Virus record (IMG/VR): IMGVR_UViG_2657244971_000002
DNA length: 6,220 nucleotides
Source of the DNA: a virus
Lineage: Duplodnaviria; Heunggongvirae; Uroviricota; Caudoviricetes
Reading direction: 5' to 3' (one strand)
The position numbers were made by a program, and so were the translations under genes. Shown here one piece after another: positions 1,306 through 5,985 of this stretch (positions are counted from its first letter, which is position 1; every line of letters starts with the position of its first letter). The notes beneath the pieces were generated by a model, which made no database searches, had not been told where the DNA came from, and saw only the letters and a program-made list of their open reading frames with translations.

Positions 1306-1549
1306 AACCGACACGGGCAGACTTCACCACATTCACCTCACGGATGTAGTCGCTGCCCATCGCATTCATGATGGCCCGCTGAAAGGGCAGTGTTTCCCAG
1401 CGCCCTTCCTGGTATGCGGATTCTTTCGGGAGATAGTAATTGGCATCCGCCCATTCAACGGCGGTCTGTGGCTCCGGCCTGAACAGTGAGCGAAGCCCGG
1501 CGCGGACAAAATGCCGCAGCCTGTTAACCTGACTGTTCGATATATTCAC
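1286..1549 (-). pseudogene. A: Terminase large subunit gpA, N-terminal fragment only (87 codons; intact gpA is several hundred residues longer)
   Basis: Translation [82 protein letters not shown] matches the lambda gpA N-terminus as I recall it, then diverges (ALCAG, stop). GTG start overlaps the Nu1 3' end as in lambda. Confidence 0.8.
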
Positions 1550-2069
1550 TCAGCAACCCCGGTATCAGTTCATCCAGCGCGGCTGCTTTGTTCATGGCTT
1601 TGATGATATCCCGTTTCAGGAAATCAACATGTCGGTTTTCCAGTTCCGGAAAACGCCGCTGCACCGACAGGGGGATCCCGTCGAGAATACTGGCAATTTC
1701 ACCTGCGATCCGCGACAGCACGAAAGTACAGAATGCGGTTTCCACCACTTCAGCTGAGTCTCTGGCATTCTTCAGTTCCTGTGCGTCGGCCTGCGCACGC
1801 GTAAGTCGATGGCGTTCGTACTCAATAGTCCCTGGCTGGAGATCTGCCTCGCTGGCCTGGCGCAGTTCTTCAACCTCCCGGCGCAGCTTTTCGTTCTCAA
1901 TTTCAGCATCCCTTTCGGCATACCATTTTATAACGGCGGCAGAGTCATAAAGCACCTCATTACCCTTGCCACCGCCTCGCAGAACGGGCATTCCCTGTTC
2001 CTGCCAGTTCTGAATGGTACGGATACTCGCACCGAAAATGTCAGCCAGCTGCTTTTTGTTGACTTCCAT
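1524..2069 (-). CDS. nohA: Terminase small subunit Nu1 (DNA-packaging protein), 181 aa
   Basis: Full-length translation MEVNKKQLADIFGASIRTIQNWQEQGMPVLRGGGKGNEVLYDSAAV ... SEYIEQSG corresponds to lambda Nu1 (N-terminal winged HTH) from memory. ATG at 2069, TAA at 1526..1524, 26-nt overlap with the A start. Confidence 0.93.
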   Translation of the reverse strand: MEVNKKQLADIFGASIRTIQNWQEQGMPVLRGGGKGNEVLYDSAAVIKWYAERDAEIENEKLRREVEELRQASEADLQPGTIEYERHRLTRAQADAQELKNARDSAEVVETAFCTFVLSRIAGEIASILDGIPLSVQRRFPELENRHVDFLKRDIIKAMNKAAALDELIPGLLSEYIEQSG

Positions 2070-2246: not shown

Positions 2247-2258
2247 AGGTCGCCGCCC
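2247..2258 (-). other. cosN: 12-nt cohesive-end sequence (terminase nicking site)
   Basis: Plus strand 2247..2258 is aggtcgccgccc, whose reverse complement GGGCGGCGACCT is the lambda left cohesive end. Adjacent 2259..2274 cgtaacctgtcggatc is the reverse complement of the lambda right-end sequence GATCCGACAGGTTACG. Confidence 0.8.
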
Positions 2259-2457: not shown

Positions 2458-2643
2458 ATGTCAACGAAGAACAGAACCCGCAGAACAACAACCCGCAACA
2501 TCCGCTTTCCTAACCAAATGATTGAACAAATTAACATCGCTCTTGAGCAAAAAGGGTCCGGGAATTTCTCAGCCTGGGTCATTGAAGCCTGCCGCCGGAG
2601 ACTGTGCTCAGAAAACAGGTCAGACCAGATTGAAGCAATTTAG
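2458..2643 (+). CDS. ynfO: Small ribbon-helix-helix (Arc/MetJ-like) DNA-binding protein, 61 aa, YnfO-like
   Basis: ORF with ATG at 2458 and weak SD ggga 7 nt upstream. Arg/Thr-rich N-terminal arm ([11 protein letters not shown]), predicted beta-strand NIRFP, then helix / G-S-G-N-F-S turn / helix ([11 protein letters not shown]), typical of RHH folds. Position next to cos matches the Qin ynfO context (recalled). Confidence 0.78.
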
Positions 2644-2690
2644 ATAATCGTGCAGACTACGCCCCCTCATATCACATGGAAGGTTTATCT

Positions 2691-3101
2691 ATGGATCAGG
2701 TAGTCATTTTTAAACAAATATTTGATAAAGTTCGAAACGATTTAAACTATCAATGGTTTTATTCTGAGCTAAAACGTCACAATGTCTCACATTACATTTA
2801 CTATTTAGCCACAGAGAATGTTCATATTGTATTAAAAAATGATAATACAGTGTTATTAAAGGGCCTAAAAAACATTGTGTCTGTCAAATTTTCAAAGGAT
2901 AGGCATCTTATAGAAACGACCTCTAATAAGCTGAAATCCAGAGAGATCACATTTCAGGAATACAGAAGAAACCTTGCTAAAGCAGGAGTTTTTCGGTGGG
3001 TTACAAATATCCACGAACAAAAAAGATATTACTATACCTTTGATAATTCATTACTATTTACTGAAAGCATCCAGAAAACTACACAGATCTTACCACGCTA
3101 A
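2691..3101 (+). CDS. ydfO: DUF1398-family protein of unknown function, 136 aa, YdfO/YbcV-like
   Basis: Track ORF is 2676..3101. The internal ATG at 2691 is preferred because the SD-like ggaagg at 2678..2683 sits 7 nt upstream; the 2676 ATG has no SD. Family assignment from recalled similarity to Qin YdfO / DLP12 YbcV. Confidence 0.82.
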
Positions 3102-3138: not shown

Positions 3139-3200
3139 TGCATTGGTTTAATAAAAACCATCAACAATTGTGATTTAGATATTCGGAACCATTCAAATAT

Positions 3201-3223
3201 AACAAAACCCCGTAAAAACGAGG
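3201..3223 (-). terminator. Putative intrinsic terminator for gnsB
   Basis: Minus-strand RNA cctcg-uuuuua-cgggg followed by uuuuguuauauuu, about 30 nt downstream of the gnsB stop. Confidence 0.4.
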
Positions 3224-3252
3224 TTTATGGATAAATTTTATTATTGAATACA

Positions 3253-3426
3253 TCAGATTAAATTAATCTTGACATCATAGCTTTCAAGACCCGTCATTTT
3301 TTCCCGTGCGGTAAACTGAATACTGGTAACTTCTTTCCCGGTCTTTTTCTTAAGTTCAATAATTTTTTTTGTTATATATTCAGAAATATCTGCTTCTGCT
3401 TTTGTTTTTAAGTTTTCAATATTCAT
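3253..3426 (-). CDS. gnsB: GnsA/GnsB-family small protein, 57 aa
   Basis: Not in the ORF track (too short); found by translation: MNIENLKTKAEADISEYITKKIIELKKKTGKEVTSIQFTAREKMTGLESYDVKINLI. The FTAREKMTGLESYDVKI motif matches my recollection of E. coli GnsA/GnsB. SD gaggaa at 3435..3430; tandem ATGs at 3429 and 3426 (second chosen); TGA at 3255..3253. Confidence 0.8.
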   Translation of the reverse strand: MNIENLKTKAEADISEYITKKIIELKKKTGKEVTSIQFTAREKMTGLESYDVKINLI

Positions 3427-3474
3427 CATTTCCTCTTTTAGTCTGTTATGACTTTCCAGTTACACAGTAAGTCG

Positions 3475-3503
3475 ATTATATGGTGCAAACGTGTAAAAGA
3501 TAA
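3475..3503 (-). promoter_or_regulatory. Candidate sigma70 promoter for gnsB (perfect -10 TATAAT, weak -35)
   Basis: Minus-strand TATAAT at 3480..3475; weak -35 TTATCT at 3503..3498 with a 17-bp spacer; about 45 nt upstream of the gnsB start. Confidence 0.3.
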
Positions 3504-3597
3504 GATGAAACATCGCAATAATCAACATACGATAGTCTAAATTTTACACAAACAGACAAAGAGAATTTTCCTGAATTATCAATGCAATAGCATCAAA

Positions 3598-3828
3598 TCA
3601 ACTCAAGAGCCTTATTGCTGCTTCCAGAATTTCTTCTGAAGTAACATGTCGATCCGCGGCTACATAAATGACTTTATGATCTCCGGTCAGAGATGGAAAC
3701 CCTGCGGCCATTACAGTAAGGTGTGTTTTTTCGCCATTTGGATATTCACGCATGATGGTGTTAACTCCAGTCATCGCTGGCACTACCACTGCTGGTTCAG
3801 AGTTAAAAAAAACTATGATTTTTTTCAT
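3598..3828 (-). CDS. ynfN: Small protein of unknown function, 76 aa, YnfN-like (cold-shock-associated in Qin)
   Basis: Track ORF 3598..3870 begins at a TTG immediately after a terminator U-tract; the first ATG at 3828 (MKKIIVFFNSEPAVVVPAMTG ...) is preferred. Symbol inferred from position between cspI and gnsB (recalled Qin gene order). SD weak. Confidence 0.7.
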   Translation of the reverse strand: MKKIIVFFNSEPAVVVPAMTGVNTIMREYPNGEKTHLTVMAAGFPSLTGDHKVIYVAADRHVTSEEILEAAIRLLS

Positions 3829-3872
3829 GATGTTACCGTAGTATGTGAGTATCCATCGAATAGACACCAAGC

Positions 3873-3894
3873 AAAAAAGCTCCCGAAGGAGCCT
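3873..3894 (-). terminator. Intrinsic terminator between cspI and ynfN (UUCG tetraloop hairpin plus U6)
   Basis: Minus-strand RNA aggcucc-uucg-ggagcuu followed by uuuuuugc. Plus strand: a-tract 3873..3878, gctcc 3879..3883, cgaa 3884..3887, ggagc 3888..3892. The flanking A-tract could make it bidirectional. Confidence 0.6.
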
Positions 3895-4099
3895 TCATTT
3901 TCACTTTTTTAAATCCAACGACAGACGGCTGGCATTTAAGTATTGTGAAATATTATCAAATGTAATCATCATTGATTTACAAAAGATACATTTTGCCCCG
4001 AAAGGATTCATGTCAGAAACATCAAAAGATGATGTTCTATACTGGGAACCATGACAACACGGGCATCTAAAGTGAATATGGTTTGTAATATTGTCTACC

Positions 4100-4312
4100 T
4101 CAAAGCGCCACTACATGAACAGCGGCAGGACCTTTAGGTCCGTTCTCAATACCAAATTCAACTTCCTGATTCTCAGTTAATGTTTTGAAATCGTTGCTCT
4201 GAATTGCTGAGAAATGGACAAACACATCTTTGCTGCCATCTTTCGGCGTGATGAAACCAAAACCTTTTTCAGGGTTAAACCATTTCACTAAACCAGTCAT
4301 TTTGTTAGACAT
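4100..4312 (-). CDS. cspI: CspA-family cold-shock protein, 70 aa
   Basis: Translation [70 protein letters not shown] carries the RNP1-like KGFGFI and RNP2-like VFVHF motifs. cspA-like context aaaggtaataatt before the ATG and aatgactggt downstream-box-like sequence inside the ORF. Confidence 0.93.
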
Positions 4313-4460
4313 AATTATTACCTTTTGAAGAAATTAGCCCTTGGGCAGAATGGTCCGAAAAAAATATCAGAGAGAAAAACCAACAAGGAAATCTCAAGAG
4401 GTACAAATAATAAAATTATAACAATGACTGCTTCAGATAAATTTGTAACAAACCAGAACA

Positions 4461-4490
4461 CCATTAACGCATGATTAACCACCCATAGCA
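4461..4490 (-). promoter_or_regulatory. Candidate cspI promoter (cspA-like -35/-10), giving a 5'UTR of roughly 140-150 nt
   Basis: Minus-strand TTGCTA (4490..4485), 17-bp spacer, GTTAAT (4467..4462); compare recalled cspA TTGCAT-17-CTTAAT. The predicted long 5'UTR is typical of cold-shock csp genes and contains a gcccaagggc element resembling the cspA upstream box gccgaaaggc. Confidence 0.45.
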
Positions 4491-4673
4491 AGGATTACTT
4501 TTGTAAAGAAAAACACAGCAATGAAAGAATAGCTTTATTTATTAATAAAACGTGTCATTCTGATTAAGACCTTTTATCTTACCCTTAAGATTTCAGGAAT
4601 TTTGGCTCATGGAAGAGTCCTTTTTATTTAAATTTTACATTCCGCGATGTAAATGTTCCGATTTAATATTACC

Positions 4674-5697
<1,024 letters not shown>

Positions 5698-5701
<4 letters not shown>

Positions 5702-5985
5702 ATATATTTATGATGAGGACGCTCGTGCTTATTGGCAGGATTTTCAATCTTAAAGGAGTACTGATGCTGCAGATAAGACTCAACTTTTTCTGACAATTTT
5801 TCTGCTACTTCCAGGAAGACTTGCCGGACGCTCCTTCTGGCTGCTGCCTCATAAAACTCCAGCGCAGCTCCTTCAACACGGTCCATGGCGACATCCAGGT
5901 CAAAAATTTCACCGTCAAAGCGTTCTTTGTCCTGTAAGGCTACAGTTACCGTAACTTTATTCTCAAAATTACGGACTCCTTTCAC
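5698..5985 (-). CDS. ydfR: DUF1327-like protein of unknown function between holin and endolysin, 95 aa; start uncertain
   Basis: ORF with GTG start at 5985. No in-frame ATG exists between the upstream in-frame stop (6072..6070) and 5985, and no clear SD. Family and symbol assigned from recalled Qin gene order essQ-ydfR-rrrQ. Confidence 0.68.

Follow-up and report, generated by a model that had tools for sequence, protein, structure and literature searches.

Do the adjoining genes ynfN and gnsB, carried by a cold-shock cassette of the Escherichia coli cryptic prophage Qin, form a toxin-antitoxin pair, or do they belong to separate units? We address this question in IMG/VR record IMGVR_UViG_2657244971_000002 (Caudoviricetes), the whole 6,220-nucleotide (nt) stretch of which is referred to here as the window. 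The window is the late-region end of Qin, its lysis-to-cos segment; complete E. coli genomes match it at 99% or higher, and the part from position 2605 to the end shares 99.8% identity with Qin of K-12 MG1655. A first-pass annotation, made from the sequence alone, had described a three-gene moron (cspI, ynfN and gnsB) inserted between the lysis genes and cos, had pointed to a similar chromosomal cspG-ymcE-gnsA locus in which GnsA was described as toxin-like with YmcE as its partner, and had proposed on this basis that YnfN and GnsB could constitute a two-component module. The cassette itself is already known, being annotated in every E. coli K-12 record, and finding it is nothing new; the question concerns its organization. 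We consider it likely that the Qin moron is cold-inducible and made up of two adjacent units, cspI-ynfQ-(ynfR)-ynfN and gnsB, and that it does not encode a toxin-antitoxin pair.

Gene content of the cassette

All three genes of the first-pass annotation are real and lie on the minus strand where they had been placed, but the slot holds five RefSeq genes, all on the minus strand, ynfQ and ynfR having been overlooked. Gene order and strand are identical to those of the K-12 Qin locus cspI-ynfQ-ynfR-ynfN-gnsB (b1552, b4724, b4749, b1551 and b1550), and between positions 3150 and 4700 the window differs from MG1655 by two single-base insertions or deletions only. In the direction of transcription, the cassette comprises the following features:

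4463..4491, minus strand: putative cspI promoter, with -35 TTGCTA (4491-4486), a 17-nt spacer and -10 GTTAAT (4468-4463)
4313..4457, minus strand: cspI 5' untranslated leader, a cspA-type thermoregulator of about 145 nt
4100..4312, minus strand: cspI, 70-amino-acid (aa) CspA-family cold-shock protein (PF00313 CSD, E 1.6e-31)
3901..4089, minus strand: ynfQ, 62-aa CxxC...CxxC small protein, paralogue of ymcF (PF23641 YmcF-like, E 1.7e-32)
3873..3895, minus strand: intrinsic terminator-like hairpin, AAGGCUCC-UUCG-GGAGCUUUUUU plus a U-run, ending the cspI-ynfQ unit
3833..3898, minus strand: ynfR, 21-aa open reading frame (ORF) read across the terminator hairpin, annotated in K-12
3598..3828, minus strand: ynfN, intact here, 76-aa soluble protein with five strands and a C-terminal helix (predicted)
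3427..3597, minus strand: ynfN-gnsB spacer, the 171-nt gns leader, with TTGATTATTG (3525-3516), TATAAT (3480-3475) and ACAGACTAAAAGAGG before the gnsB start
3253..3426, minus strand: gnsB, 57-aa GnsA/GnsB-family protein (PF08178, E 3.1e-35, full length)
3201..3226, minus strand: intrinsic terminator after gnsB, with a 9-bp stem and a T-run (terminator scan; fold -11 kcal/mol, z = -2.4)

The cspA-like promoter and long 5' untranslated region previously attributed to cspI are both recovered. The Rfam cspA leader (RF01766) matches positions 4073-4457 on the minus strand over the full length of the model (model positions 1-428; 114.2 bits against a gathering score of 78, E 1.8e-29), and Rfam yielded no other RNA family in the window. 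Its first position, 4457, falls some 6 nt past the -10 element. The TTGCTA-17-GTTAAT arrangement is homologous to that of cspG, a ATCATGCGTTAAT block is identical between the cspI and cspG loci (alignment A1), and an AT-rich stretch lies farther upstream. A simple consensus promoter scan made no call at this site, and it is homology and position that suggest a promoter of the cspA type. CspI is 100% identical to K-12 CspI, is annotated as cspI in RefSeq and scores 128-138 bits against the NCBIfam CspG/CspA models, slightly below their equivalog cut-offs, as expected of a paralogue; the gene is listed under cold stress response in a review table (PMC12360218). At about 4357, the cspI leader differs from that of MG1655 by one base within an A-run.

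Ten nt past the cspI stop codon, ynfQ starts with ATT (4087-4089), as does its chromosomal counterpart ymcF (L003 3185-3187), and every one of the 15 loci translated retains this start. YnfQ is 65% identical to YmcF and conforms to the YmcF-like zinc-ribbon type in its PF23641 profile, its CxxC...CxxC pattern and its position directly after csp; the database label of ynfQ/ymcF is 'cold shock small protein'. The hairpin that follows (RNA fold -14.9 kcal/mol, z = -3.0) is also kept in the cspG-ymcF and Citrobacter cassettes. The ATG of ynfR is absent in the Citrobacter-type cassette, so that ynfR may be a by-product of the hairpin confined to certain lineages. For GnsB, membership of the GnsA/GnsB family is upheld by the alignment to GnsA that had been suggested as a check, which gives 67% identity (E 4e-27), and by matches to the solved GnsA structures 4XO1 and 4XO2 (E about 5e-20).

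Between E. coli-type and Citrobacter-type cassettes, the ratio of nonsynonymous to synonymous substitution rates (dN/dS) is 0.02-0.04 for cspI, 0.07-0.15 for the ymcF-like gene, 0.09-0.20 for ynfN and 0.05-0.07 for gns. These low values indicate that the four genes encode real, constrained proteins under purifying selection.

The chromosomal paralogue and the ymcE reading frame

The chromosomal locus named in the first-pass annotation exists and also holds ymcF, the counterpart of ynfQ: K-12 cspG-ymcF-ymcE-gnsA is a paralogue of the Qin cassette at the DNA level. Both possess the promoter, a cspA-type leader, csp, a 10-nt gap to an ATT-initiated gene, the hairpin, the gns leader and gns. Homology extends from the promoter through the leader, csp and ymcF/ynfQ to the terminator hairpin, breaks there, and resumes about 110 nt before gns to continue through it. 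The architecture is therefore modular, with middle segments that are not homologous: ynfN plus about 60 nt in Qin, and about 190 nt annotated as ymcE on the chromosome. In the alignments (A1 and A7), ynfN falls wholly within the unaligned middle.

Since the alignment places ynfN outside the shared DNA, ynfN is not the Qin counterpart of ymcE. Positional homology between them is absent: residues ~10-20 of the K-12 ymcE ORF align with the terminator and ynfR, and the 3' part of the ORF corresponds to the gns leader. The residue match involved (MKAPSGAFLLG in YnfR, IRLPRGAFFIS in YmcE) arises because both frames cross the shared hairpin. At the protein level, BLASTP failed to align YnfN with YmcE at a threshold as loose as E<=100; nor does YnfN match PF15939 (YmcE putative antitoxin), which YmcE itself matches at E 1.6e-56. 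The first-pass annotation had named a lack of relationship between YnfN and YmcE among the outcomes that would count against its proposal, and this is the outcome obtained; together with the independent occurrence of ynfN and gns described below, it leaves the idea of YnfN as a YmcE-like partner of GnsB unsupported. The cold induction that was also proposed is not contradicted, YnfR being cold-induced (PMC6001520).

The pair on which the analogy was modelled is itself poorly supported by conservation. A list of E. coli type II systems within PMC8484670 includes ymcE-gnsA with reference to Wei et al. 2015, and the toxin-antitoxin label is repeated by Pfam, RefSeq and recent papers. The K-12 ymcE ORF (L003 3348-3578), however, overlaps ymcF, the terminator, the gns leader and gnsA. 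Of the eight Escherichia lineages in which its conservation was checked (including L030, L031 and L034-L038), four lack the ymcE ATG (E1V33, an E. coli strain, MOD1 and E. albertii) and four carry a disrupted frame (E1V33, E. whittamii, E. ruysiae and the E. coli strain that also lacks the ATG). The ORF is thus broken or without its ATG in six of the eight lineages, while ymcF and gnsA are intact in all of them. Substitutions between K-12 and E. albertii are distributed over codon positions 1/2/3 as 4/5/4 in ymcE, compared with 2/0/8 in ymcF and 2/0/11 in gnsA, and the lack of codon-position bias in ymcE indicates that the region is conserved as nucleotides and not as codons. Judged on this sequence pattern, the region would fit a gns leader or promoter, which weakens the assignment of GnsA and YmcE as toxin and antitoxin. 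The earlier description of GnsA and YmcE agrees with the Pfam and RefSeq labels, but the ymcE ORF that it presupposes has no coding signature.

Independent occurrence of ynfN and gns

Upstream of gns, csp and ymcF-like sequence is found in every one of 27 gns loci sampled from GTDB species genomes, degraded in a few. The middle segment varies: it holds ynfN in Escherichia and Citrobacter prophage-type loci and 'ymcE' where gnsA is chromosomal, is reduced to a remnant in L025 and, in L028, consists of 297 nt devoid of any ORF. Hence gns occurs without ynfN in all gnsA loci, in L025 and in L028. The generalization that every gns follows csp-ymcF was considered and rejected, as it is true of these 27 close relatives and is broken by the more distant gns genes of L043-46.

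Conversely, YnfN-family homologues were sampled in ten types of neighbourhood:

Type 1, Qin and the Citrobacter cassette: gns adjoins ynfN
Type 2, phage PHB10: csp and then ynfN, no gns
Type 3, L012/13: csp-ymcF'-ynfN followed directly by a terminator (order in L012), with a second ynfN paralogue
Type 4, L014: csp-ynfN order as in L012, the contig ending 67 nt after ynfN
Type 5, L042: phage lysis-terminase junction, no csp and no gns
Type 6, L043-46: chromosomal stress island, gns 2.6 kb from the ynfN-like gene
Type 7, L047-49: ynfN homologue divergent from a csp gene, no gns
Type 8, L050 (2950-3728): ynfN homologue divergent from a YnaE/YdfK-type cold-shock gene (63% identity to Qin YdfK)
Type 9, L051-53: lysis-terminase junction, tandem ynfN paralogues, no csp
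Type 10, L054: none of the neighbours named above

A cold-shock gene adjoins the ynfN homologue in six of these types, and gns is nearby in two. The available DNA of the other eight contains no gns within about 3 kb, the L014 contig ending just past ynfN; ynfN without gns over that distance is the case in PHB10, L012/13, L042, L047-49, L050, L051-53 and L054.

The stress island of type 6 is enterobacterial (L043 2201-5979, also L044-L046) and carries hsp20, a YnfN homologue (46% identity), two unknown genes, a Mn catalase gene and a standalone gns (63% identity), with neither csp nor ymcF. Its ynfN-like and gns genes stand three genes apart, each with its own terminators. This co-location hints at some functional association between YnfN and Gns.

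A further separation of the two genes is found in K-12 itself. The T-run of ynfN at 3802-3814 (codons 6-8) has eight T in the window and in most relatives, and seven in MG1655 (L002 about 6130), where an intact gnsB stands beside the resulting frameshifted ynfN. The lost T explains why the MG1655 annotation gives a 51-aa product starting at Met26. The N-terminal sequence MKKxxVFFN is conserved across the family, indicating that the 76-aa form is the real YnfN protein; on the predicted fold, the 51-aa K-12 'YnfN' is an N-terminally truncated remnant without two of the five strands.

A proposed organization in two adjacent units

Like a type II toxin-antitoxin system, ynfN and gnsB are two small adjoining genes, one of them from a family that databases label 'toxin'. 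Unlike such a system, they show no overlap or tight bicistronic coupling, no conserved co-occurrence as partners and no recognisable antitoxin fold. The 171-nt spacer that separates them contains a leader common to all gns genes: the blocks TTGATTATTG and then ACAGACCAGAAGAGG precede every gns gene (alignment A7), among them gnsA (where they lie within the 'ymcE' ORF), those of Citrobacter and the one in L028, a locus with no ORF upstream of gns in its middle segment. Their gnsA-type form reads TTGAAT-17-TATAAC, a good sigma-70 promoter, and the spacer of the Qin cassette may likewise hold a promoter for gnsB. No conserved RNA structure or thermometer was detected in the gns leader, for which RNAalifold returned 3 pairs and no covariation.

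Published expression data fit the same division. By RNA sequencing (RNA-seq), cspI, ynfQ and ynfN rise 6.5-, 5.9- and 5.8-fold under azidothymidine (AZT), with a LexA dependence of 4.3-, 4.0- and 9.9-fold and an SspA dependence of 38-, 42- and 51-fold, respectively, according to the main text of PMC11228462, from which gnsB is absent. Such parallel induction is as expected for one transcript. Taken together, the neighbourhoods, the shared gns leader, the co-induction and the K-12 frameshift assign ynfN to the csp unit and set gnsB apart.

Under the proposed organization, the cspA-type promoter and thermosensing leader of the first unit would direct synthesis of CspI, an RNA chaperone, and YnfQ, a small protein of the zinc-ribbon type, and read-through of the hairpin at 3873-3895 would extend the unit to YnfR and YnfN. 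The hairpin is probably leaky as a terminator, as suggested by the co-induction of cspI, ynfQ and ynfN and by the strong cold-shock induction of YnfR-SPA (PMC6001520). The second unit would consist of gnsB with its own conserved leader, including the promoter-like block, and its own terminator. The cassette would benefit the lysogen in the cold. Because it is co-oriented with the lysis genes S-R-Rz, late transcripts should traverse it, and Q-antiterminated late transcription would then also cross it during lytic growth.

Several observations weigh against this organization. Both the read-through of the hairpin and the separate start site of gnsB are steps that we infer. The promoter-like block is degenerate in Qin (TTGCGA-17-TACACG), and the consensus promoter scan made no call in the ynfN-gnsB spacer. 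Within E. coli, the linkage of ynfN and gnsB is complete, and a distant YnfN homologue stands 2.6 kb from gns in the unrelated stress island of L043-46. Databases name the GnsB family as a toxin (PF08178 'GnsA/GnsB toxin'; 'addiction module toxin' for gnsB in RefSeq), and overexpression of gnsB raised persister counts in a preprint (bioRxiv 10.1101/310961).

Alternative explanations

The last of these observations are also what recommends the proposal that ynfN-gnsB is a two-component toxin-antitoxin-like module, with YnfN in the role suggested for YmcE towards GnsA. The Pfam and RefSeq names, the antitoxin name of PF15939 and the listing of ymcE-gnsA among type II systems in PMC8484670 all point in this direction, as do the place of ynfN directly upstream of gnsB, its length of 76 aa, like that of the YmcE ORF, the persister phenotype and the constant association of the two genes in E. 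coli and many Citrobacter prophages. We nevertheless regard such a module as very improbable. YnfN shares neither sequence similarity nor cassette homology with YmcE, the gap before gnsB is the leader of gns genes at large, each gene is found without the other, MG1655 retains gnsB beside a ynfN broken at codons 6-8, and the model pair is doubtful when ymcE is disrupted and gnsA is intact. Overexpression experiments also argue against toxicity, for in several screens gnsA/gnsB plasmids rescue growth instead of blocking it. The strains rescued are cold-sensitive and defective in membrane fluidity, and measurements showed a rise in 16:1/18:1 on expression of gnsA (bioRxiv 10.1101/2024.03.27.586906; PMC10607373); Sugai et al. 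2001, as cited in these two sources, found that gnsB overexpression raises unsaturated fatty acids and suppresses the cold sensitivity of fabA6(Ts) and secG-null strains. The functional literature on gnsA/gnsB is thus mostly one of growth rescue and of more unsaturated fatty acids, particularly at low temperature.

YnfN and GnsB might instead be linked in function without being toxin and antitoxin, for example in adapting the membrane and its lipids to stress. In favour of such a link are their adjacency in the Qin and Citrobacter cassettes, the presence of a 46%-identical YnfN homologue with a 63%-identical Gns in one stress island of another enterobacterial lineage, and the very small size of the YnfN family. 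Eight of the ten neighbourhood types, however, lack gns in the available DNA (with L014 ending early), the two island genes have three others between them and are terminated separately, and YnfN offers no biochemical lead, so that we judge this link unlikely, if less so than a toxin-antitoxin module. A somewhat better case, though still a minority one, can be made for a cassette that mainly serves the phage, with Q-antiterminated late read-through supplying an RNA chaperone and lipid remodelling to phage growth in the lytic cycle or to lysis in the cold. All five genes are oriented as S-R-Rz and lie directly downstream of Rz, the same cassette occupies that slot in isolated, viable lambdoid phages, and other YnfN homologues sit at the lysis-terminase junction without csp (L042 and L051-53). 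Yet a cold-shock promoter, a leader and terminators belong to the cassette itself, it is kept in the defective Qin prophage of about 39% of complete E. coli genomes, and the equivalent cspG-ymcF-gnsA cassette is chromosomal. Roles in the phage and in the lysogen are compatible and not mutually exclusive.

The YnfN family

Among 1.84 billion representative proteins, the YnfN family numbers just 45 matches at E<=0.001. YnfN matches no family in Pfam or NCBIfam and belongs to phrog_3425, of unknown function; its AlphaFold2 model has a pLDDT of 87.7, and neither the solved PDB structures nor the predicted viral structures searched gave a match. The sole lead on its role is where its genes recur, next to cold-shock genes and at the phage lysis-terminase junction; our best guess for YnfN is an accessory protein of the cold-shock response, linked to csp expression and not to GnsB. 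Second, diverged paralogues of the family are present in L012 (2037-2279), L014 (725-952) and L051 (4220-4450, in tandem), and the family tends to undergo local duplication.

Setting and distribution of the cassette

The placement between the lysis genes and cos holds, the cassette being bordered by rzpQ on one side and leading towards an exact lambda cosN on the other. The neighbouring features of the window are these:

Upstream end of the minus-strand gene series: essQ (start of the gene)
5698-5985, minus strand: ydfR
5168-5701, minus strand: rrrQ
4674-5171, minus strand: rzpQ/rzoQ, the lysis gene bordering the cassette
2676-3101, plus strand: ydfO (DUF1398)
Plus strand: ynfO (DUF3950)
2247-2258, minus strand: cosN, exact lambda match GGGCGGCGACCT, just upstream of nohA/Nu1
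1524-2069, minus strand: nohA/Nu1

Located between gnsB and cos, ynfO and ydfO (2458-3101, plus strand) form a second accessory unit in the same slot, in the opposite orientation. Towards the other end of the window, the terminase large-subunit gene is cut off after 87 codons (1286-1549), positions 190-1540 have no match to K-12 Qin, and no long ORF is listed in 1-1285, where ORFs running off the window end are not listed. The junction within 1-1549 is a deletion or fusion other than the nohA/stfQ one of K-12.

The cassette is inherited as a unit. It is present whole in 2095 of 5426 complete E. coli genomes (about 39%), and 2096 of the 2153 matching records cover at least 80% of it; in the phage collection it is carried whole by seven phage records, which represent six distinct lambdoid phages. 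Contigs L016 (labelled Veillonella parvula) and L032 (a Mucilaginibacter metagenome-assembled genome) also carry E. coli cassettes, at 98-100% protein identity, and their labels probably reflect bin contamination. With a fixed Rz-cos slot, a leader and terminators of its own and a variable presence, the cassette is a lambdoid phage moron of the cold-shock type, as had been proposed. Searched for membership of defence systems, it gave just a generic CSD match for CspI in PADLOC.

The morons that lambda-type phages carry in the same place, bor in lambda and borD in DLP12, are likewise accessory cassettes with a promoter and terminators of their own in the lysis-cos slot, bor encoding a serum-resistance lipoprotein. 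The Qin cassette differs from them in carrying cold-shock and lipid genes and in being co-oriented with the late operon.

Implications for cold-shock and gns genes

The tempting analogy between YnfN and a YmcE-like antitoxin is removed by these results. Among their more modest by-products are the modular architecture common to the Qin and cspG cassettes, the non-coding signature of ymcE and the frameshifted ynfN allele of K-12. Because the reference ynfN is frameshifted, work on 'YnfN' in an MG1655 or BW25113 background would probe a shortened protein. The ymcE ORF is not conserved in the manner of a coding sequence, and yet its product continues to be named as an antitoxin, and even as a protein that switches folds. 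A bolder conjecture, which we hold tentatively and think rather doubtful as a whole, is that the ~75-aa YnfN family is an unrecognised cold-shock effector acting with CspA-type chaperones or with Gns lipid remodelling, and that at the same time the GnsA-YmcE toxin-antitoxin pair is an annotation artefact in which 'ymcE' is the leader of gnsA. If the organization described here is confirmed, GnsA and GnsB would be cold-adaptive lipid regulators with expression signals of their own, and not toxins of addiction modules.

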